A stretch of DNA of 64,000 nt, from assembly GCA_905178155.1 (NCBI GenBank), contig CAJINV010000002.1, positions 8,877,412-8,941,411 of the forward strand. Reading direction: 5' to 3'. Origin of the DNA: Amoebophrya sp. A120. Taxonomy: Eukaryota; Protista; Dinoflagellata. A model generated the notes under the pieces. That model saw nothing but the letters and a program-made list of their open reading frames with translations. It had not been told where the DNA came from and searched no databases. Position numbers and translations under genes: made by a program. Shown piece after piece: positions 16,584 through 50,000 of the stretch (position 1 is the stretch's first letter; the number at the start of each line of letters is the position of its first letter).

Positions 16584-19500
16584 TCATACTCCTCCTCCCT
16601 TCATCCGGGAGGGTGAATCTCGAATGTGCTGCGCGAACTGCGCTGCCACGTTACCATAGGCGCCTCCCTCCCGCTCCATTTGCCCAAAAGCGTCTTTGTC
16701 CTTCCCGCCCCTTCCTCCTGCTTTCCAGTCGGGCATGATCCCCCCCTGGTCCTCGTATCCGCCCCACCCTTCGTGGACCTCCTTCGCCTGGTCGTGAAAG
16801 TCCTGCTCGTCTTGCTCCCACTGGTCACGCTTCCCCTTCTTCTGAATCACCGCAACGCACAGCACGATGGACAGCAGCCCCAGCACCCCCAGCGGTAAGG
16901 CAATGCACACCCACATCGGACACCCGGCGAGGTTGCCCGAGGCCGGCGGCGCAACCGGCCCCGTGCCCGGGGCCGCGTCCGCCACCGCCTGGCCGCCCGG
17001 AACGCTCAACCCCCGGGCCTCGTCCATCAGCCGCCGGTACTCCGTGCTCATCGCTGGCACCGAGGCGATAGTGCTCCGAAATTTCGCCAACCGTGCGCAC
17101 AGTTGCGGGACACTGAGCAGTTTTGAGTGGACAATGATGGTTTATGATTTCAACAGTACTTCGTTCCTTTCTCGCTTAACCTTTTTTAGCAAGATAAACA
17201 TTCCATGAGTACTACCGTCCGAAACACAGCATTTATGAAATCCTAAAACAAACCTATTGGGACAGAAAGTCAAACAATTAGCACCTAGAGCCCGCAGGAT
17301 GTTGCTATTAATTTCCTTTATTCAAAAAAAGACTTTATCAATAAATACACGCTGAATTTCGCCACTGTCGTTTTCAGCAAGTCGGAATTCGACAAGCACT
17401 GCTCGCCCTCGAGTCTGCAGCACGGGATCAGGTCCTGCGTCGGCGACACTGCGGCGGGGATGGTCCGGCGCACCGATCCGTGCGCGTAGTCAAAATTTTG
17501 CACCACGTATCCAAGAAAAAAACACCATCACAATCACATTTGGGAGGTTTTGCATCAGAAATTTGTCTCGCATGACAAATTTTTCTTGTATTGCAAAAAC
17601 ACAAAGGGAAATCGCCCATAGCTCTTGACTGTGATGCATTTTTGCGCATGACAAAAAATTTTGTATTGCAAAATTGTGCAAAAGTGATTGTGATGGTGTT
17701 TTTTTCTTGAATACCACGTCGCGAACGGGCAAACAGTCGTGGGCCCCCTCGTGGGCCTCCAGCTCGCAGATCTGCGACACGATGCCGTCCACGCGGGCGA
17801 ATTCCCCGTCCACAACTTGCGTGTTTTGTGTCGTGGTGGGCACCGCGTGCGTGGCTTCGTCCGATTTCCGGCGCGCCTGTCGCTTTCCCGTCTTCAACAC
17901 TTCGACGGCGGATGAGGAAGAAGCAGAAGGCTCGTCAATCGCAGTCGTGCTGTTTTTTGCCGCACTAGCCGCGCTTTCCAGATTTGTTGACGCGTCTGCT
18001 TTCGAAGAAGTGGCCGCTGCGTTCTTTTCCTTCTTCTTTTTCTTTCTCTCGCCTGTGTCCAAGTGGGTCGCTTTCACAACCTTCTGGACGAAGCTGCTCA
18101 GTGTTTCCTTGCCCTCGCCAAAAAATCGGTCGTACAGATGAGCTCCGGCGTGCTCGAAAAACCGCGTGGCCACCCCTTTCTTGCCGTCCCGCGGTGCCAT
18201 AAACATGGTCTTCTTCTGGTACTCGTGCCGCTCTTTCACCGTGTCAGGATGTTCCTCCGAGTCCGATTCCTCCTCCACCAAGTCACCTTTTGCGTCCAGA
18301 TGCAGGTGCTGCTGCTTCCTCGCGTGGTGGCCGTGTGCCTGTCTGGACTGGTCTAACTCCAAGTAGGACACTTCTGCGGCCGGTGTTTTGGCACTGGCGG
18401 GTCCTGCTGGTTCCGGCTTCGCATTCCCATCCGTGGCTGCCGGCGTGGAACTGAACGTTTCGGTGGTGGGAGCGGGGGTCGACGCAGATGAAGATGATCC
18501 GTCCTGCAATAAGGACTTGTCGTTTCCAGAACCAGCACCACTTGCTCGCGTAGTGGAACTCGCACTTCCGCTTTCTTCTGCCGTCGAGTCTTGCAGAAAG
18601 GAGGGGGAAGGCGACGTGGAAACGGATGGAGTCGTAGTACCGCTTTCCGTAAGCATTTCGGGCTTTTCCTGCAACGAAGGGGACTCCGTGACGGTAGGGG
18701 TGACAGTGCTGACGGGAACACCCGATGCAGCAGCGCCCTCTGAGTTCGAAAATCCTGCTGGGGGGCTTGCAGTAGTGGTCGCAACCGCCTCTGGGTCTTC
18801 TTGCAGGAAGGAAGGCGAGGTAGCCGGCGGGGAGGTTGTAATAGCAGTAGAAGGTGTTGCCGTAGTGCTGACTGGCGCGTCTTGCAGGACCGAAGGTGCG
18901 GTTGTTGTACCTGCCGGCGTTGTGACCGAACTTTCTGTTGTGGTTCCAGGTGCCTCTTGGAGGAAGGAAGGCGGCGTCGTGGTCCCTTTTGTCGAAGATG
19001 TAGTTGCATTGGTTGCATTGGAGTTTTCTGAAGACATCGTCGGAGACGGCACGATCACGGGAGGAGTCGCGGTGCTCTTGCTTCCCTCCACGGATGAACT
19101 TTCCGACGGTGCAGCCGCTTCCAGAAAAGATGGCGCGGTGGTGCTCGCCGAACTTGACGAGGGGCTGGGTGCCGGTGCTTCGGCTTGCAGCTTTTCGTTG
19201 TTTTCAGGAATGGTCTTGCCTCGCTCCTGTTCGGTGAACGCTGCAGACGGTTCACTTCCTTCCTCCTGCGCAGCCTGCGGCCGTCCGGCGTTTTGATCGA
19301 TGCTACCTCCGCTTTCCGGTGGCGTGGCCGATGAGGATGGACCACTTTGCGGTTGTGTTTCTACTGCTGGCGCTGCCGTGCTGGAACCTGTTTCGGCACT
19401 CCAGCCATTTTCCTTCTTGCCCTCGTCCCCTGGTCCGGCAGGGGTGTTGCTCTCAGGCTTACCGGCATCTTTCCCTTGGTTGAACGACGTGGCGCTGGTC

Positions 19501-31901: not shown

Positions 31902-33661
31902 TCATGTTTCTTTGGTATCTTTTTCGACTGTAAACTGACTGCTGCCATACCCGGCAGTTGTATCTACTTTCGTTTTCTGTTTCAAATCTGGCGCTGTCGC
32001 CTCAACATCCTTTCTCGTTGTACTATTCCTCCGACCTTCTGTCTGCTCTATTTCTGGCTCGATTTGAAAGTCCAGGTAAAAGATGCACTGTGATGAACCT
32101 TTTGTATTTTCAAAAGTCACGATCACGTTTACCTCCCGCTCTGCTTGCGGGTCTCTGGCCGCTCCTGGTTCCCTCGACCCGTCCTCAAAATTCTCCCTGT
32201 TCTTCTCCAGCATCATATCAGAATGAAAAATCCCCCCTCCCCATATCAAAACGAAACTTCTGATGCTGGATTTGAGTACACAAATCAGCTTTGTATTGCA
32301 GGAAAGCATTGCAGTCAGGTCCCCAGGCTAGGTAGGGGCGTATGCGCCTAGTTGTTCAGCATGGCAAGCGGCCCCCCTTTAGGCCCAACAGCATGACAAA
32401 TCGACTCCGCAATGGGGTGGAAGCTTCTGCCCTTGCCTTCTTGCAAAACAAATGTGATCTGTGACCTCAAATCAGCAACACAAATTTTCGGAAACATGCC
32501 TTTTCAATATGGGGAGGGGGGATTTTTCCTCTCAATACATCAGCTCCAGTAATTTCAAATCCGCCTTGCTGTCGCGCAGCGCAAATTCCGCACGCAAAAA
32601 CGTGATCACGCCCTTGAGTATGTCGGCATAGAATACCAACGCGTTCTGCAAATGCTGTTCGTGCGGATTCGCGACAGTTTTTGCCTGCCCTCCCGCCACA
32701 GGCGTGGTGTTTGTTGCAGCAGGTGCCGCCGCGGACGCGGCTACCGTCAAGTGGCATACCAGGTGCCTCACGGGCCGAAAGTCGTTGTCCCACAGCACAT
32801 ATCAAATGTAAAAATGTCTGGGTCTGGAAGAGTCATGCTGTTTCTGCATGACACAGAAGGTCTGTCATGGAAGCTCTGGCATCACAGGTTTCGAGAAGCT
32901 TCCGCAATGCCGAACCCGCATGACAAATCCCCCATTTTGGTGACAGAAAGTGAGCAGCTTTTGCTACCTATGCATGAGAGATTTTTGTGTGTTCTGAAAT
33001 GCGCATCACAAGTTGCATTCTTCCAGACCCAGACATTTTTACACTTCATAGCACAAAGCCTCCCGTATCGCGGTTCACCTGCAGCCGGTCCGAATGTATC
33101 AAATGTAAAAATGTCTGGGTCTGGAAGAATGCAACTTGTAATGCTGTCTGCGGATTCTAAAAATATCTGTGTTGCATGAGCAGCGAGAGGAGTCAGTTCT
33201 TGGCACGCCGAGAGGGCATTTGTCATGCGTAATTAGCATCAAGAAGCTCGCAAAAAATCTGTGATGCTAGCACCAGCATCACAGACCTCACGGGTCATGC
33301 AAAATGTGCATGGCAAGTCCCGACTCTTCCAGACCCAGACACTTTTACAATCCATAGCCTGCTTCCCGAAGCAAAAGCTCCACACCTCGCGGCACAGAAA
33401 TTTCACGGCATCCCGGTGCTCGCTGATCACCTTCTTTCGCAGCAGGTGCTTCCCGATCTTTTGCCCCAGTCGGAACGCCATAAACGTAGCCCCGGATGAG
33501 GTTGGTGGGCGAGTAGAATCCTCCTCTGGGAGGTCTACTGTTGGATGTGCTTTCGGTAACGTACCGATTCTGTGGTCCTTCTCGCTTTTTTTCCGGTTCT
33601 GCAACTGCAGAAACGCATTCTGGAAATGCAGCAAGACCGGGTAAGCAATCTCGCTGGTCAT
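31902..33661 (-). CDS. TRAPPC6: TRAPP complex subunit Trs33/TRAPPC6, 4 exons separated by three TIR elements (33661-33357, 33091-33051, 32794-32538, 32210-31902)
   Basis: The spliced product reads AFRLGQKIG...AVKFLCREVWSFCFGKQADRLQVNRDTGGFVLWDNDFRPV...FYADILKGVI. This matches the Trs33 pattern KF[IL]C[KR]..W...F.KQ.D.L..N..G.[FY]VL.D..F. Confidence 0.85.
32216..32537. mobile_element. TIR introner-like element, family B (322 bp)
   Basis: Ends TATCAGAATGAAAAATCCCCCCTCCCCATAT / ATATGGGGAGGGGGGATTTTTCCTCTCAATA. TSD CATCA at 32211-32215 and 32538-32542. Removal gives LELM-LEKN in frame. Confidence 0.9.
32800..33050. mobile_element. TIR introner-like element, family C (251 bp)
   Basis: Ends TATCAAATGTAAAAATGTCTGGGTCTGGAAGA / TCTTCCAGACCCAGACATTTTTACACTTCATA. 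TSD GCACA at 32795-32799 and 33051-33055. Confidence 0.92.
33097..33356. mobile_element. TIR introner-like element, family C (260 bp), inverted relative to 32800-33050
   Basis: Same TIR core TGTCTGGGTCTGGAAGA. Degenerate TSD GAATG (33092-33096) / GCCTG (33357-33361). The interior aligns by eye to the reverse complement of the neighbouring copy. Confidence 0.88.
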
Positions 33662-41776: not shown

Positions 41777-44700
41777 TTATGTGGGCAACTTCACTCCTCG
41801 GTCGCAGACCAGGCACAAAGTCACCTGGTTGGACCCGTCCGGCGGGATGAACTCCCCGGGCAGGATGCCCAAGTTCAGTGTGACGTTGACCAATTTCCGC
41901 GCGTTGCACTTCGGACAGGTCGTGCCCGTGGGTTCACAACTTTTCACCGCCCGCGGCAGCCAGACGACCTCCTTGCATTTGGGGAACTGGTCACACGACA
42001 GCCGCCAGTTGGTGTTATCCTTCACTTTCAGCACCATTTGCCCGTTCCGACACTTCCCGCACTTCGCCACCGCCTGCTGCGGCCGGCCGCCGGCCAGCTG
42101 GCAGGTCGCGTGCCGGCACTGGAAACAGCGCATGTTGGCGGGGGTCGGAAGGTTGTCGTTCGGAAAATCCGGCGGATTGTTGAAGCAGTAGGGGCAAAGC
42201 GTGTGCTGCGTGTTGGTCACATTGTTCTTGATCAAGACCGTGCCCGTGTTGCAGATGGGGCACGTGAAGTTCCGGTCGGTGATGGTCTTCTCGCTGGCCG
42301 GGGTTCTGGAGGGCAGCAGGAGCAGCGTGTTGCCGCCCGCGGTGCAGTTTTGCTGCAAATTGCACCGAAACATGTAGTTCTGCACCACCAGCTGTGGCGT
42401 GTTGCTGTTGGAGGCTGAATTTCCCTGTTTTCCCTTGCCTTTTTTCTTCATCGCGGTCTTCTTCTTTCCCTTGCCGCCCTTCGCATTACTAGTGCCAGCA
42501 TTTGCTCCCGCAGCACCACCCCTCGAGGACCCCTCCGCCCCCTCCGCAATCGTGATGGCTGCATTCGAGCCGCCCTTGTTCCCGCGCGGCACGGTCATCT
42601 CTTCCTGCGCGAGGAGGTCCAGCCGGCCTTGGCCGCAGCGGCACGGCACAATCCCGGCCTGGATCAGGCGGACATTGGTGTTAGGATTGTTCGAAGTAGA
42701 TGCATTCGGAGCGGCAGGCTGCCCATGTGGTCCTCCTCCACCTCCACCTCCCGGGCCGCCGAAATTCGTACCCGGACCCCCGCCCCCTCCGGGGAAAGAC
42801 CCACCTCCCGGGCCTCCAGGAGGGGGGAAGTGGGCAGCTCCAGGCCCACCACCCGCTCCCGGAAAACCTCCGCCCGGACCCGGTCCACCTGGCGCACCTC
42901 CAGGTCCCCCCGCACCACCTGGACCTCCAGGACCCGGCCCGCCGCCCGCACCCGGAGGTCCACCAGCGGCGCCCGGCGGTCCGCCTGCTCCCATGTGGAA
43001 GTTGCCCATCACGTCTGCGAAGTACGTGCCCAATTTCCCGTCCAGCGTCCCCGGATTCTGGCTGATGTTCACGAACAGCTGCTGCATGTGCTGCAAGCAG
43101 TTCTGCAAAAACACGTTCTTTTGCTGCTGGTTCAGCGCGATCCGCGTCATCTCCGCCTCCATCGCCGCCCGCAAATCCGGCTTCGAGATGTCGTACCCCA
43201 GCAGAGCCGCGAACTCCTGATACCCCTCGACCAGGGCCAACCCGAGGGTGGTGGGCGCGAACCGGTTTTGGTTGTTCTTCACCGAGTAACTGCGGTCCTG
43301 AATGGTCTGGATGTGCGTGGCCATGGTGGCGTCCGTGCCAATGCCAAACCGATCCATCAACGCGATCAGCTCCGCTTCGGTGAGCAGTTCCGGCGGCTGC
43401 GTCGTCCCGCTGGTCATTTGCAGCTCATCCACCACGCACGGCGTCTGATTCGCGTGGTGAAACACGGGCTCCAACACTCGATTCACCACGCAAAGAGCCG
43501 CGGGTAACAACGTATCCGTTCGCCCCCAACGGTCGTAGGGGTAGACTTCCAAAAACCCCTTGTCCGTCACGCGCAACCCGTTCGCGGTGAACTCCTCCTC
43601 GTTTTCCGGGGGGTTGGTACTCGCTGTCACGGAGGTCTTCTCGCCCGTCGCGTCGGGGGAAAGGCAGGCTAAAAAGTGCCGGGTGATGAACTCGTAAATC
43701 TTCCACTTCCACCCATTGATCCCGTTTTCGTTCTCCTGCAAAGTCTTCACCGGGTGGATCGGCGGGTGGGCCTGGTCGTCCTTCGGCCCGTTGCGCGGGT
43801 TGGTGAACCGATTCAAATTATGCACCTGTCCGTTCACGAACAGCCGGTTCGCCACGTAGTGGCCCCAACTGTTGTGGTTTGCGTGGACAATCGCGAGCTG
43901 TTTCAAATCGATACTAGGGTGGAACTTCTCCGTCTCCGTCCTCGGATAGGAGATATAGCCCGCTTGGTACAGCTCCTCGGCCAGTTTCATAGTTTGCGCG
44001 GAGGGGATTCCGAAATACGTACTACATTTTTTCGTCAGTTCAATGGTGGCCAGCGGGATCGGGCGCCAATGCGTCACGTTGCGGATTTGCACGTCCGTGA
44101 CAATCAGTCTGCGGCTGTTCGCGGACTCCAGTACGTCCTCAAAAAAGTTCAAAACCGCAACCCGATCGAACAAGCGGTTGCGGTGCCAGGTAAACTCAGT
44201 CAAGGACGGGTCTCGGTTTATTGGCTGATTGTTGTTGTTTGCGTTATTTGTCCCTCTATTTCCCCCGCCGCCGCGCCGGGTATTTCCTGTTCCTCCAAAG
44301 TTGTTTTCCGAACTTTTGTTCGCCTCGAAGTTCGTGATTTCGTCCTGCGACAGATTGTGCGTCTTCACGACCAGTTTGATTCCCCAGAACGGCTCGGGCA
44401 GGAAATTTCGGATCAGTTGGTACCGTTCCTATCCCACGAAAAAACTGTTTCACTGTGATGATTTTGCAATATCTGCATCACAAGTTTCTTACACATGACG
44501 CGGAAAACTTGCCATGCGCGCTTCCCAAGGGAAAACACGCTTCAAGATCCGATGTCTTGCAGGTGTAGCAAGACAAACACCTTGCTGCTTCGTTCTGTGC
44601 ATCACAAGTTCACAGTGAAACAGTTTTTTCTTGCGATAGTTCCACGACGAACCCCAATGTCGGAAACTGACAGGGGCCGTACGACTATCCTGAGTAAAAA

Positions 44701-46429
44701 CGTACCCACACCATAGTTGTCATGCAGATTTGCCATGACAGGAACATGTGTGATGCGCAACCCCATGAAAGGCATTTTCAATCGTGTTTGGGAACTTGTA
44801 ATGCTGTAAACAGGATCAGCAGATCGATTTGTGATGCGGCTTTCCTTGCTAAATTGCACTACCTTACAGGCTGAAACTTGTCATGCGTGACTCCCAAAAC
44901 TCCTAGGTTTGTGTTGCAAAATCCCCATCTTGACTCTGGTGTGGGTACGTTTTTAATCGGGCTAACGACAGTAACTGGTTCGCCAAGTCCGGGAACCTTC
45001 GCTGGTACCGGAGACACATAAAGCGCGTGAAAGCTGCGCCGATTCTGAGATCGATCTCCGTCCGCGCCTCTACGGCGTCCGCGAGGGCTTTGTTCGGGAT
45101 TTGCAAATTTTGCACGGCGTTGGTCAAGTCTTGGAAGGTTAAAGCGGAAAAGACCGCCCGCTTTATGACCAGGTTGGGGTTTTTGTTTAGCGCAACCTCC
45201 AGCACTTCGTACCCGATCGCTTCCCCCTCCCGGTCACAATCCAGCCACAGAACGATCCAGTCGGACTCCCGGGCTAACTCCTCGATCATCCTCTTCAGGG
45301 GCAGCATGTCCCGGGGCACGAACCGGTTCACCGGTTGGTTCAGAAGCAATTCCACCGGAGGCGGCCCGTTCTGCCAGGATTTGCACGCCTCCGGGAAGTC
45401 GATCTGCATCAAATGTCCACGAACGGCGGAAACCTTCATCTTTACCTGCGTCCCCTGTATTTGATAATTGAACTCGTCCACGTTCACGCCGTTGAAGCCC
45501 TGGCCCCCGATTCGGCGCCGATTCACGTTTGCATTCCGCGCTAGGTGCTCGGTGATGCCCCGCTGCACGGAGGGTTTTTCCGCGATGTTCATGATTCGGC
45601 AATTCGGAAAGGGGGGCAGATTGGCGTTGTTGTTCTGCCCATTCTGGTTGAAGAACGCATTGTTCTGGTTGTTTGCTCTGCGCCGCGGCGGCATCTTCGC
45701 GATTTGCGCAGCGACTTTGTCGCTGGGGGAGGGACAGGGGGAAAATGAGGTGCAAGTTGATACACTGGTGTTGGTCTCCGAAGGCGAAGTTGTCTGACAA
45801 TCCTCCACGTTGTCAGGAGGCAAAGGATTAGTTGATGCAGGGCCTAAATGGGCTGCTTCAGAGGAAAACAGAGCTCGGAGATGCAGTTCTGTCTCCTCTG
45901 AGCCGATTCTGGAGCCGCAGGACGGAGTTGTCGTATCGTGTTCGTGTGGCGCCTTTCGTGGGGTAGAAAGATCTTCCGCCGCCGCGTCCTCAAGTATTTT
46001 CGATGTGACGGTCCCATTTCCGCCTGCTGGTGTGCCACTGCTAAAATGTCGCTTCAACCGTCGCGGGTCATCATGATTTTCGCCTCTAGAAAGGCGTCGC
46101 TGTTGCTGCTTCACCAAATCAAGTCGCGAGCTTTGTGCGCGGCAGCTACCGAGCGTCAGATGTTCCGCATCCGCCCAGACATTTCGAAATATGCCATTGG
46201 GGCGATGCGCATCTACATATTCAGTAGAAATATCAAACGCAAGTGTGCGAAAAGTGCTGAGATGATGGCGTAAAGTTGTAAAATGCCTCGGCAGGCGCGA
46301 TTGAAATTTGTCCTGTGGACGAAAAAAAGTCAACAAGGTAGTGGAAGAGTAGTGCGTTGGTGGAACAACGGAAACGTAAGGCTTGCTGGCCGTGGATAAA
46401 CTTCTAGTCAGACGTCCTCCTGCACTCAT
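41777..46429 (-). CDS. TOP3A: DNA topoisomerase III alpha, 3 exons (46429-44965, 44680-44639, 44424-41777)
   Basis: TOPRIM motifs IAEKPS and WLDCDREGE; IDLRIGAAFTR; spliced SYGPCQFPTLGFVVERY; catalytic GYISYPRTET; AHPPIHP; GIGTDAT; C-terminal C4 zinc ribbons (CPYCFNNPP, CDQFPKC). Confidence 0.95.
44430..44638. mobile_element. TIR introner-like element, family D (209 bp)
   Basis: Ends TATCCCACGAAAAAACTGTTTCACTGTGA / TCACAGTGAAACAGTTTTTTCTTGCGATA. TSD GTTCC at 44425-44429 and 44639-44643. Confidence 0.92.
44686..44964. mobile_element. TIR introner-like element, family E (279 bp)
   Basis: Ends TATCCTGAGTAAAAACGTACCCACACCA / TGGTGTGGGTACGTTTTTAATCGGGCTA. TSD ACGAC at 44681-44685 and 44965-44969. 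Colinear with 47350-47628. Confidence 0.92.
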
Positions 46430-47091: not shown

Positions 47092-50000
47092 TTACGCTTT
47101 GTTTTTCTTCCTTCTCTTGGCTTCCAGTTTTCCCATTCTGGCTTCCTTATCGGCGTTATTCCCCGTCGGTATGCGCTTTTTCACCGAGATCTTTTGTCCG
47201 AACTGCAACAAAGCGTTTTCCCCCTCTGCCAGCGTCTGTGCCTCCTCCTCGTCGATGGTGGTAACCTGCCCGCCAATGTTGGCGTCAATGTCGACTTTCT
47301 TCACTTCAGCGCTGCTGCCGGAAGCGTTTTTCCTCTTCTCCTCCATCTGTATTAAGAGGAAAAACGTACCCACACCAGAGTTGTAATGCTGATTTGCAAA
47401 GACAGGAAGACTTGTAATGCGCATCTCCATGAGCGGAATTTCTAGTCGTGATTTGGCATTTGTAATGCTGTAACCAGGATAAGCAGATGGATTTGTGATG
47501 CGTTAGCCCTTGCTAACCTGCACTACAGTACGGGCTTGAACTTGTGATGCATGAGTCCCAAAACTCCTAGGTTTGTGTTGCAAAATCCCCATCCTGACTC
47601 TGGTGTGGGTACGTTTTTACTCAGGATAATCTGTCGTTTGACCTCATCAGACAGCATCGGCTCGAGCGCCTCCGACCACACACGGATTAGGATATGAACT
47701 GCAAAAATGTCTGGGTCTGGGAGATTGCGAGATTTGTCATGCTTGTCTGGCATGACTCTGAACTCTGTGTTGCATGGCCGCGAAGAGCTCCTCCTCGGTG
47801 TCATGCAAAAACGCAGTTTCTCATGCGGAGTACGCAACTCAGAACCATGGAAAAAACTTGTCATGCTTGGCAGCGCATTATAGTGAGTTCACTACTCCCT
47901 TTCCTGCATCACAAGTTTCCAGACCCAGACATTTTTACATTTGATATAGGAGCTTCGTAAACAACGCGTGGGTTTGCGACACAGGAAGCTGTAACTCCTT
48001 CGACACCTGCTCGAACGTCTTCTGCTGGCAGCCGACGGCGAGAAGGATGGCGGCGTGCACCGCGGAGAGTTGTAAGTTGCAGGGCGCACCTTTATTTGTC
48101 GCTGGTGCGCCACTGTTGACAGCGGCATTGCTGCTACTCGGTGCGACAAATTTCCCGTCGAAATACAGACTCGCCAGCACCGGGAGCAAATCCTGAATCA
48201 GCGCCACCTCGGCCCGCTTGTTCGCGAAGAGCTCGATGCGGTGCAGGTCGTGTCTCGTGACTTGCTGCAAAACGCAGTTCAGCAATTGCTCAGAGTGGGA
48301 AACACGATTTTCATCTGCATCCGTCAGAATTCCAGGTGCTACCGAGCTCGAGCTCGGCTGCCCGGCGACGGAAAGTGCGAGATTCAGTGGCAGTTTTTGG
48401 AACTGTTGCGTTTTCAGCAGTCGCAGGAACCTACACCGGAAATCTTTGTGGAACTCGGCCAGCCAAGTCGCGGTCGTCGCTGAATGTCGCTTGTTGGAAC
48501 TTGTAGAAGCTTTACCACCACTTCCCGTGGCCACCATGGACGATGAGCCCATTCTTCTCAACAGAATTCCGCTGTGTTCACCAGTCACGTCGTTCGCCGT
48601 CTGCCGGATGTAGATCGGGTCAAACTTCAGCTTGTTGTGCCAAAATTCGAACAGCGGCAGAGTAACGCCAAAGCTGGTTCCGAGCCAGTCGAGCTCGAAT
48701 ACGGGTTTCGTGTCTTGGACGGACGAAAGCAAGGCCGGAATCTCCTCTTTTACGGTCAAAGCTTGGGAGTCGGCGGCCGTGGAACTTTTACTATTTCCCT
48801 TTCCTGTTTTTGACTCCTTTTCCTCCTCATCTCCGTACCCTCCCGCCGGCACCATTTCCAGATTGCACCACTTGATGAACTGGGAAACCGCCTCTTGACC
48901 GTAGCCCTGCCGCATCATCTGCGGGTGCGTCGCGATGCGGACAATCCTGGCGCCCTTCAGAGAACCGAAATTAGCGTCGGAAAACTGCTGCGAGATCGTC
49001 CAGGAGATCATGTCCCCGCTTGGACGAAGGCCGCGGGCGAGCGAGTTCGCCACCGCCTCCTTGTTCAGCGCCCCCTCGGTCGCGACGTGCATCGCGACCA
49101 GGATCTCTGGAATCGTATCGGACTCACCGGAGTCGTTCTGTATTGTAGACAAGCACTTTCGTAGAATTTGAAAGTATTCGAGGCATAGAATGAGCAAATA
49201 TGCTACTCTAGCTAGAAACGCCGCGGTGGTACAACCTCTAATGGATGCATAAAAACCAAGTCACCAATAGTAAACACAGCGAAGTTATTTTCTATACCGT
49301 TGAATCCTCCCCGTCGGACTGGTCCGAATCTTCCCGACTCGGCGCCAGCAAGACGAATAGGTAATGCCCCGGCGCGTCGGACAACAAGATCAGATCGTTT
49401 GGACTGTTCTTGTAGTGGCTCGCGACAAACAAACCCGTTAACTTCTTTAAGAACTTCTCCGAGGCCCCGTGGTAGCTGAACAACGCCGTTCGGTCGACTA
49501 GGAACAGCTCGCACTGGTCCGGCATGGGGCACCCTACCTTCTTCATTTTTTCCAGTGCTTTTTTGCTGGAAACCGATTCCGACGCGTCCAGGAGGCACAA
49601 CTCGTTCAGCCACGCCTCCACCGCGTCGTTCAGGCAGTATCGAATCGGCTCTTTCAATTCGATCTCCGCAGAGAGTTTCTTCTGGTGTTTCAGATCCTGT
49701 AACAGTTTCAAGGACAAAGACCGACCGGTCCCCTCGTACCCGTTCACGGTGGAGGACATTAACGTCAGGTATGGCCCGAGCATCTGCTTGATGATGGGGA
49801 GCGGAATGGCCGCCGCCTCGTCGATGATCAGCATCTCGGCCTGGGAGAGCGCGGTCCCGTGCTGCGAAACGATCTCCGGCGGGATGTACTGGATCGTTTG
49901 GCGGTGGTTTTTGAACACGTTGACCCGGACGATGTTGCCGCGTTTGCTGTCCCCGTGTTTCAAATTCAGATTCTGGTTGGTGTTTGATTTCTCCAGATCC

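Follow-up and report, generated by a model that had tools for sequence, protein, structure and literature searches.

Background

Introner elements have been described among the non-canonical introns of the dinoflagellate Amoebophrya sp. A120 (Farhat et al. 2021, PMC7789003). In the passages of that paper considered here, they carry a motif of TAT, seven variable bases and AAA, a direct repeat of 3-5 nt, non-canonical ends and inverted repeats of 8-20 nt, and are about 240 nt long. The same passages report that A120 has no U1 and that no cognate transposase was found in it, propose that a hairpin joins the exons, and call the position of the intron border variable or unknown. Its text and supplement text, so far as considered (supplement figures S19-S25 aside), treat the orientation of genes, not that of elements relative to the gene.

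Introners in either orientation are known from Polarella glacialis, as passages of Roy et al. (bioRxiv 10.1101/2020.10.14.339549) describe, and the same is cited there for Aureococcus anophagefferens. For A120, passages of Gozashti et al. (2025, PMC12130899) report introners with terminal inverted repeats (TIRs) and homology to Copia/Gypsy open reading frames. The pipeline described there demanded similarity of 5' with 5' ends, so that the two orientations of the family studied here would be split, and we found no orientation result for A120 in the main-text passages. The method of Gozashti 2022 (PMC9860276), as outlined in the passages considered, does allow for insertion in opposite orientation, and passages of PMC8469720 describe symmetric introns of fungi that function on just one strand. 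In the open literature, subscription papers aside, no report of orientation independence of Amoebophrya introners was found, nor one of unbiased orientation in introners that lack canonical sites.

Here we analyse two elements, E1 and E2, that lie in one gene within the window, i.e. the whole 64-kb stretch of A120 DNA under study. Both resemble the described A120 introners in that they sit in an A120 gene, bear TAT-N7-AAA ends on all four arms and a direct repeat, are repeated in the genome, and are removed with non-GT-AG ends in probable RNA. The description in the passages of PMC7789003 differs from what we see in four respects: the arms here are about 30 nt and not 8-20 nt, the cut of E2 is fixed to one base, no orientation bias is found, and neighbouring copies pose a problem of cross-pairing. 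The TIR introners in the passages of PMC12130899 share with E1 and E2 the genome and the inverted ends and suggest a candidate kind of mobiliser, whereas E1/E2 copies are 250-260 nt long and non-coding. Being short and non-coding, with inverted ends and a duplication of fixed length, E1 and E2 have the properties of MITEs.

The introners of Polarella and Aureococcus, as portrayed in the passages of 10.1101/2020.10.14.339549, are likewise transposon-derived introns with a target duplication, found in either orientation. However, their G(T/C/A)-AG sites are built from the element end and a constrained duplication, whereas here the duplication is free and canonical pairs occur at chance; their simple classes are biased to one orientation, whereas the E1/E2 family is unbiased among the matches listed. 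The nonconventional introns of euglenids, in the passages of PMC11282704 and PMC12501133 considered, are also MITE-like, with inverted ends predicted to bring the junctions together and with non-canonical borders, and their two cuts lie at constant but different distances from the stem, 3 nt on one side and 5-6 nt on the other; the E2 cut is unequal too. However, E1 and E2 do not follow the euglenid code of an N3-CDG start and a CHG-N5-6 end, for they start with TATG and have no CDG at +4 to +6 with either E2 cut. The defining CAG at +4 to +6 and CTG near the 3' end are absent here, and the lineage is unrelated. For Euglena, these passages cite a circular excision product and proof by mutation, whereas E1 and E2 are known from sequence and contig joints.

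Two inverted copies in a TRAPP-family gene

Scanning the window for TA-N8-AAA ends whose inner arms match identified eight introner elements (Table 1), all of them interrupting minus-strand reading frames. A relaxed scan of the window yielded no further elements, shuffled windows giving 0, 0 and 2 matches. The elements at 44686-44964 and 47350-47628 are 84% identical and have their end variants swapped. Long reading frames run on the minus strand across the window, similar to the co-oriented gene blocks reported for Amoebophrya A120, and at positions 1-243 a palindromic unit of about 30-45 nt recurs in an array.

Table 1. Positions of introner elements and of the exons of the E1/E2 host gene in the window
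Feature	Position	Strand	Remarks
Introner element, one of three other families	17508-17713		perfect 5-nt repeat
Exon 4 to stop codon	31902-32210	-	X4 contig piece 31903-32210
E0, introner element of another family, 322 nt, third intron	32216-32537		perfect 5-nt repeat; skip 32210>32538 (327 nt) in X3/X4 contigs
Exon 3	32538-32794	-	joints; annotated protein
E1, introner element, 251 nt	32800-33050		arms 32800-32831 and 33019-33050; perfect 5-nt direct repeat (5/5), 32795-32799 and 33051-33055; skip 32793>33050 (256 nt) in X3/X4 contigs
Exon 2, 41 nt, between the inverted copies	33051-33091	-	both flanking joints with 42-nt short side in X3 and X4
Diverged second copy of the E2 5-nt repeat	33092-33096	-	3/5 match; leaves with the intron
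E2, introner element, 260 nt, first intron of the coding region	33097-33356		arms 33097-33128 and 33325-33356; skip 33091>33357 (265 nt), one base of ambiguity, in both X3 and X4
Exon 1, TRAPP-family (Trs33-like) gene	33357-33661	-	Pfam PF04051; joint at 33357; ends with repeat copy 33357-33361
Introner element, one of three other families	44430-44638		perfect 5-nt repeat; skipped in X3 and X4
Introner element, one of three other families	44686-44964		perfect 5-nt repeat; skipped in X3 and X4
Introner element, one of three other families	47350-47628		perfect 5-nt repeat; skipped in X3 and X4
E6, a third E1/E2-family member, located in a different gene on the minus strand	47693-47946		removed; skip 47687>47947 in X3/X4 contigs

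The original prediction held that 32800-33050 and 33097-33356 are two copies of one element in opposite orientations, and at these coordinates they do form one family with opposite interiors; all motifs quoted in its support were found. In a colinear global alignment, the reverse complement of E1 matched E2 in 181 of 262 columns (69%; score 197), versus a score of 105 for the same strand. The similarity is not confined to the TIRs. With 35 nt taken off each end, the interiors scored 81 on opposite strands (117 of 192 columns) and -15 on the same strand, and 2000 shuffles of the interiors gave a mean of -33.5 (sd 11.1) and a maximum of 17. The inverted arms measure about 30-32 nt in each element. 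The opposite orientation nevertheless applies to the interiors only; read along the transcript, the outermost 10 nt of the arms have one orientation in E1 and E2 alike. Taken alone, the pair thus leaves room for a polar signal in the outermost bases. Such a signal is excluded by the third family member, E6, together with the family-wide orientation count given below: on the transcript, the outer ends of E6 are the opposite way round to those of E1 and E2, and E6 is still removed. Another element, E5, has the same end arrangement as E6, the reverse of E1/E2, and is removed too.

The translation of exon 1 is 100% identical to P0001, a 303-aa protein of Amoebophrya sp. A120. Searches place the gene in the TRAPP family only; from the motif around the junctions, we take it to be Trs33. 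Removal of E2 alone would give a product of 116 aa, of E1 alone 140 aa, of E1 and E2 together 202 aa, and of E1, E2 and E0 303 aa, and this last product is identical to the annotated A120 TRAPP protein P0001. The claim that both copies must go to make Trs33 was thus correct in that both are removed, but it had missed E0, which must leave as well to bring 202 aa to 303. All three introns are already part of the public gene model (P0001). At the junctions, the peptide sequence is conserved in both P0003 and the A25 orthologue; retaining the repeat copy at 33092-33096 instead would alter the conserved KQAD of A25 and P0003.

Removal in probable RNA and the position of the cut

Removal was examined for the stretch 30500-48500 in contigs of runs X3 and X4, both from one sample and RNA by inference. 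All seven elements in this stretch, representing four families, were skipped precisely, at lengths of element plus 5 nt. Both E1 and E2 were absent from these probable-RNA contigs, so neither copy is left unspliced there.

We take X3 and X4 as RNA because of differences in depth between the runs, uncovered bins, the identity of exon pieces and a higher word share in other runs. In one gene, the depth differed between the two runs as 129.6 versus 8.9, and in the neighbouring gene as 7.2 versus 16.2; two bins had no depth in either run; long exon pieces showed 0 other letters; and the share of the region's words was 0.88 in X1 and X2 compared with 0.57-0.61 in X3-X6. The assignment being a guess, the skipped forms might instead be DNA, either from an allele or strain free of the insertions or from precise excision at the DNA level. 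We regard this as barely credible: seven elements from four families would all have to be missing from DNA that is otherwise letter-perfect over long pieces, and the uneven depths, the empty bins and the contrasting word shares do not fit DNA. Moreover, passages of PMC7789003 report 66,565 RNA-supported introns in A120, over 60% of them non-canonical.

Raw RNA reads from X10 and X12 belong to another strain, no read fitting the present one wholly. They contain unspliced family-like ends with foreign flanks at 33097-33145, 44686-44717 and 47586-47628. Related families thus exist in a relative and are sometimes retained in its transcripts.

None of the eight window elements has GT-AG or GC-AG ends at any equivalent boundary, and GA-AG ends are possible in one of them (44430-44638). 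E1 has seven equivalent boundaries, none with an AG end, and the boundaries of E2 are limited to CT..TT or TA..TC; neither is a canonical U2 spliceosomal intron with a GT/GC donor and an AG acceptor. A GC donor at the end of exon 1 was considered and is ruled out by the observed joint.

The two repeat copies of E2 are not identical, which leaves two possible positions for its cut. The exon keeps the upstream copy and the downstream one leaves with the intron; the 5' cut falls at the foot of the arm or 1 nt ahead of it, and the 3' cut 4-5 nt past the other arm. Removal therefore remains directional, the cut being asymmetric where it is resolved, namely at E2 only. Ten copies with diverged repeats in the related assembly (see below) did not fix the cut, and a protein search for one of them found nothing among 19 candidates.

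Orientation across the family

A 19-base arm motif was searched against a metagenome collection and matched at least 154 loci, 152 of them on contigs of the closely related public assembly JACKZZ. The one JACKZZ protein piece tested is 96% identical to an A120 protein. These loci include at least 124 whole copies of the E1/E2 family, compared with three in the window itself. After exclusion of 6 copies that had no recognisable repeat, 1 whose orientation was ambiguous and 23 whose strand was weakly called, 94 copies were scored. Their host strands were predicted by a Markov model trained on the reading frames of the window, which at the threshold used was right in 94 of 96 leave-one-out cases.

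On these predicted strands, 49 copies were oriented with host transcription and 45 against it (p=0.76; 94 scored among the matches listed). The balance was 63 to 54 without the strand filter (n=117) and 36 to 40 with a stricter one (n=76), again among the matches listed. A strict orientation bias, which would have spoken against the original prediction, was thus not present in the copies of the related assembly, a genome other than that of the window. In 7 of 12 listed pairs with interiors at least 95% identical, pairs that share members, the two copies had opposite orientations. As to whether close opposite pairs are avoided, 3 of 7 neighbouring pairs among the matches listed, a small number, were opposite. 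A second opposite pair, L076, reads colinearly with the A120 protein P0004 across both junctions.

Among the 94 scored copies of the matches listed, 92 would break the frame if kept, 87 contain stops in all three frames and 84 have a perfect direct repeat. When the element plus 5 nt is removed, the flanking phases agree in 60 of 75 listed cases (27 of 37 and 33 of 38 by orientation). Removal of +3, +4, +6 or +7 gives agreement in 6 to 10 of 75-76, while +8 gives 61, as it should in a test that depends on the length modulo three alone. Pfam domains were recognised in 10 of 90 exon pieces, which belong to 8 of 45 copies (3 versus 5 by orientation, one weak); only the predicted strand had been submitted, so this check can confirm strands and cannot measure their error.

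Where the signal can lie

Among the scored copies of the matches listed, no base preference was found at any of the five repeat positions. Nor were GT/GC..AG pairs enriched (8 of 84 sense and 6 of 84 antisense, against 6% of random insertions). The family consensus is the same in both orientations within about position 30 and differs beyond it, and no interior motif common to both orientations was found near either end in the matches listed. From the missing base preference, the missing site enrichment and the differing consensus, it follows that a signal in the repeat or the interior is unlikely, and the arms remain. Likewise, with no orientation bias and no enrichment of canonical sites, the interior carries no one-way signal that is needed.

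Arm positions 1-3 and 11-13 hardly vary in any of the families seen. The two arms of a copy differ at positions 4, 5, 7, 10, 14 and 15 in 49, 46, 76, 49, 22 and 43 of 123 listed copies, respectively, which makes the base of the stem their most mismatched part. A single TATG-type arm was found at the 3' end in 28 listed copies and at the 5' end in 11 (p=0.009, post hoc after 30 positions); by orientation, the 5' versus 3' counts were 9 versus 7 and 2 versus 21 (Fisher p=0.019). This bias is at most a preference, because E1 and E2 carry the TATG arm at the 5' end and both are removed.

Polarity might still be hidden, in the form of a polar signal present on both interior strands or of interiors that flip between strictly polar ends after insertion. 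The outer ends of E1 and E2, which face the same way on the transcript, agree with this, as do the weak 5'/3' bias of one end variant and the occurrence of end variants on either side of the interior (32 versus 12 among the matches listed), which flipping or end exchange would produce. However, E5 and E6 are removed with the opposite end arrangement, 52 of the 94 listed copies have a TATC-type base at both arms with every combination occurring, and the interiors offer no shared motif, so that we consider hidden polarity very improbable.

Two simpler ideas about the arms were rejected. A transcript whose 3' arm is always TATC-type fits five of eight window elements with unlike fourth or third bases and is reversed in E5 and E6; the family-wide bias also runs the other way. 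The notion of one constant and one decayed arm fails because the same variants turn up in different copies and on either side, which marks them as alleles and not as decay.

Arm positions 4, 5, 7, 10, 14 and 15 are unlike between the two arms in 18-62% of copies, also among copies whose interiors match at 95-97%, and reshuffling of the ends seems to outpace divergence of the interiors. An unrelated family, about 150-160 nt long (flanks of L009, L018, L020, L107, L110, L115, L122 and L132) has outer 10-base end variants in common with the E1/E2 family. Its inner arms differ, as if end modules were exchanged between families.

Cross-pairing of neighbouring copies

In predicted folds, each of the 5' arms can pair with either of the 3' arms (-45.8 or -48.6 kcal/mol). 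The best predicted fold of the whole region is cross-paired with exon 2 in the loop (-299.4 kcal/mol, versus -260.8 kcal/mol without cross-pairs). For transcript prefixes, the own stem of E2 is the best predicted fold until the 5' arm of E1 appears, within about 75 nt. An Rfam match of the cross-paired hairpin to mir-1 (29.2 bits versus a gathering threshold of 45.6) was taken as chance.

The suggestion that the four similar TIRs could mispair and skip the 41-nt exon is borne out by equilibrium folding, which favours cross-pairing, but not by the joints: no 32793>33357 joint occurs among the 15 of 21 listed. The exon-included form is the sole form among these joints, in contigs, which drop rare forms. 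Skipping the exon would shift the frame. If the stem guides the cut while cross-pairs are more stable, then early commitment or a kinetically trapped first stem is needed for the exon to be kept; if the sequence of the ends is read instead of the stem, no kinetic step is needed.

Proposed mechanism

The original prediction attributed removal to the symmetric ends or a hairpin and not to polar signals. The observed removal, the missing orientation bias and the missing canonical sites do point to the ends, but a polar way of reading them is compatible with the same data. With symmetric arms, an element presents the same 5' end and the same 3' end whichever way it faces, so that a polar reader of ends would be blind to orientation as well. 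It is likely that the cell reads only the symmetric ends here and not the usual one-way splice signals. Our overall reading is that E1, E2 and their relatives are copies of one introner family in either orientation which probably arrived as non-autonomous DNA transposons and are cut out by a reader of symmetric, pairable ends.

In a first step, a transposase would insert the element without strand preference and duplicate 5 nt of the target, as suggested by the 30-nt inverted arms and the 5-nt repeat of free sequence. In either orientation, as the sequence shows, the element in the transcript then starts with TAT-N7-AAA and ends with TTT-N7-ATA, and its arms can pair at a predicted -46 to -49 kcal/mol. 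Third, the 5' cut would be made at the arm base or one base ahead of it and the 3' cut 4-5 nt downstream of the other arm, whereby the element leaves with the downstream repeat and the sequence present before insertion returns, as seen at E2 and presumed for the rest. Finally, the intron might be committed during transcription, its own stem forming before the arm of the next copy is made, and the 41-nt exon would thereby be kept. As catalyst, a U1-less spliceosome in which the stem substitutes for splice-site pairing would be a likelier candidate than the alternative, an endonuclease-ligase.

These ends may act by pairing or by their sequence. Matched arms are equally explained by the needs of the transposase together with young age, and so do not separate the two. 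An altered spliceosome or helper proteins might read TAT-N7-AAA as the 5' and TTT-N7-ATA as the 3' signal, pairing being incidental and the A of ATA perhaps serving as a branch point at a fixed distance from the 3' cut. This would agree with the near-invariant positions 1-3 and 11-13 and the mismatches between them, and would explain exon inclusion by itself. The commonest 3' arm ends in TTGAT-A, which resembles the branch-point consensus (39 of 94 exact among the matches listed). However, many copies lack this form, and the variant without it occurs more often at the 3' end than at the 5' end (28 versus 11 among the matches listed). Precedent exists in Polarella and Aureococcus, whose either-orientation introners use ordinary polar sites in the passages of 10.1101/2020.10.14.339549 considered, and U2, U4, U5 and U6 are reported in A120 in those of Farhat et al. 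(2021, PMC7789003). On the other hand, about six fixed bases per end would seem little for locating ends that lie unpaired 200-330 nt apart. On this evidence, we see sequence reading with incidental pairing as rather unlikely.

Returning to pairing as the guide, we tentatively put forward, as a possibility short of an expectation, a splicing route that is blind to both the sequence and the direction of the intron and measures from the hairpin during transcription, cutting at its 5' foot and five bases past its 3' foot.

Significance

The element class is already known and annotated, and either-orientation introners with canonical sites are known too. What is added here is unbiased orientation without canonical sites, a single resolved cut that is asymmetric and offset by the duplication length, and a naturally occurring test of pairing. 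Neighbouring inverted copies set equilibrium pairing against co-transcriptional commitment. Introner pipelines that align 5' ends to 5' ends only would split or halve such families.

These results bear on the way in which A120, lacking U1, rids its transcripts of tens of thousands of non-canonical introns, and narrow the information needed to about 30 symmetric bases at each end, as opposed to the interior, the duplication or GT/AG. If the route measuring from the hairpin proves true, it would undo insertions in any orientation and at any site, and would explain how tens of thousands of elements could invade coding sequence after the loss of U1.
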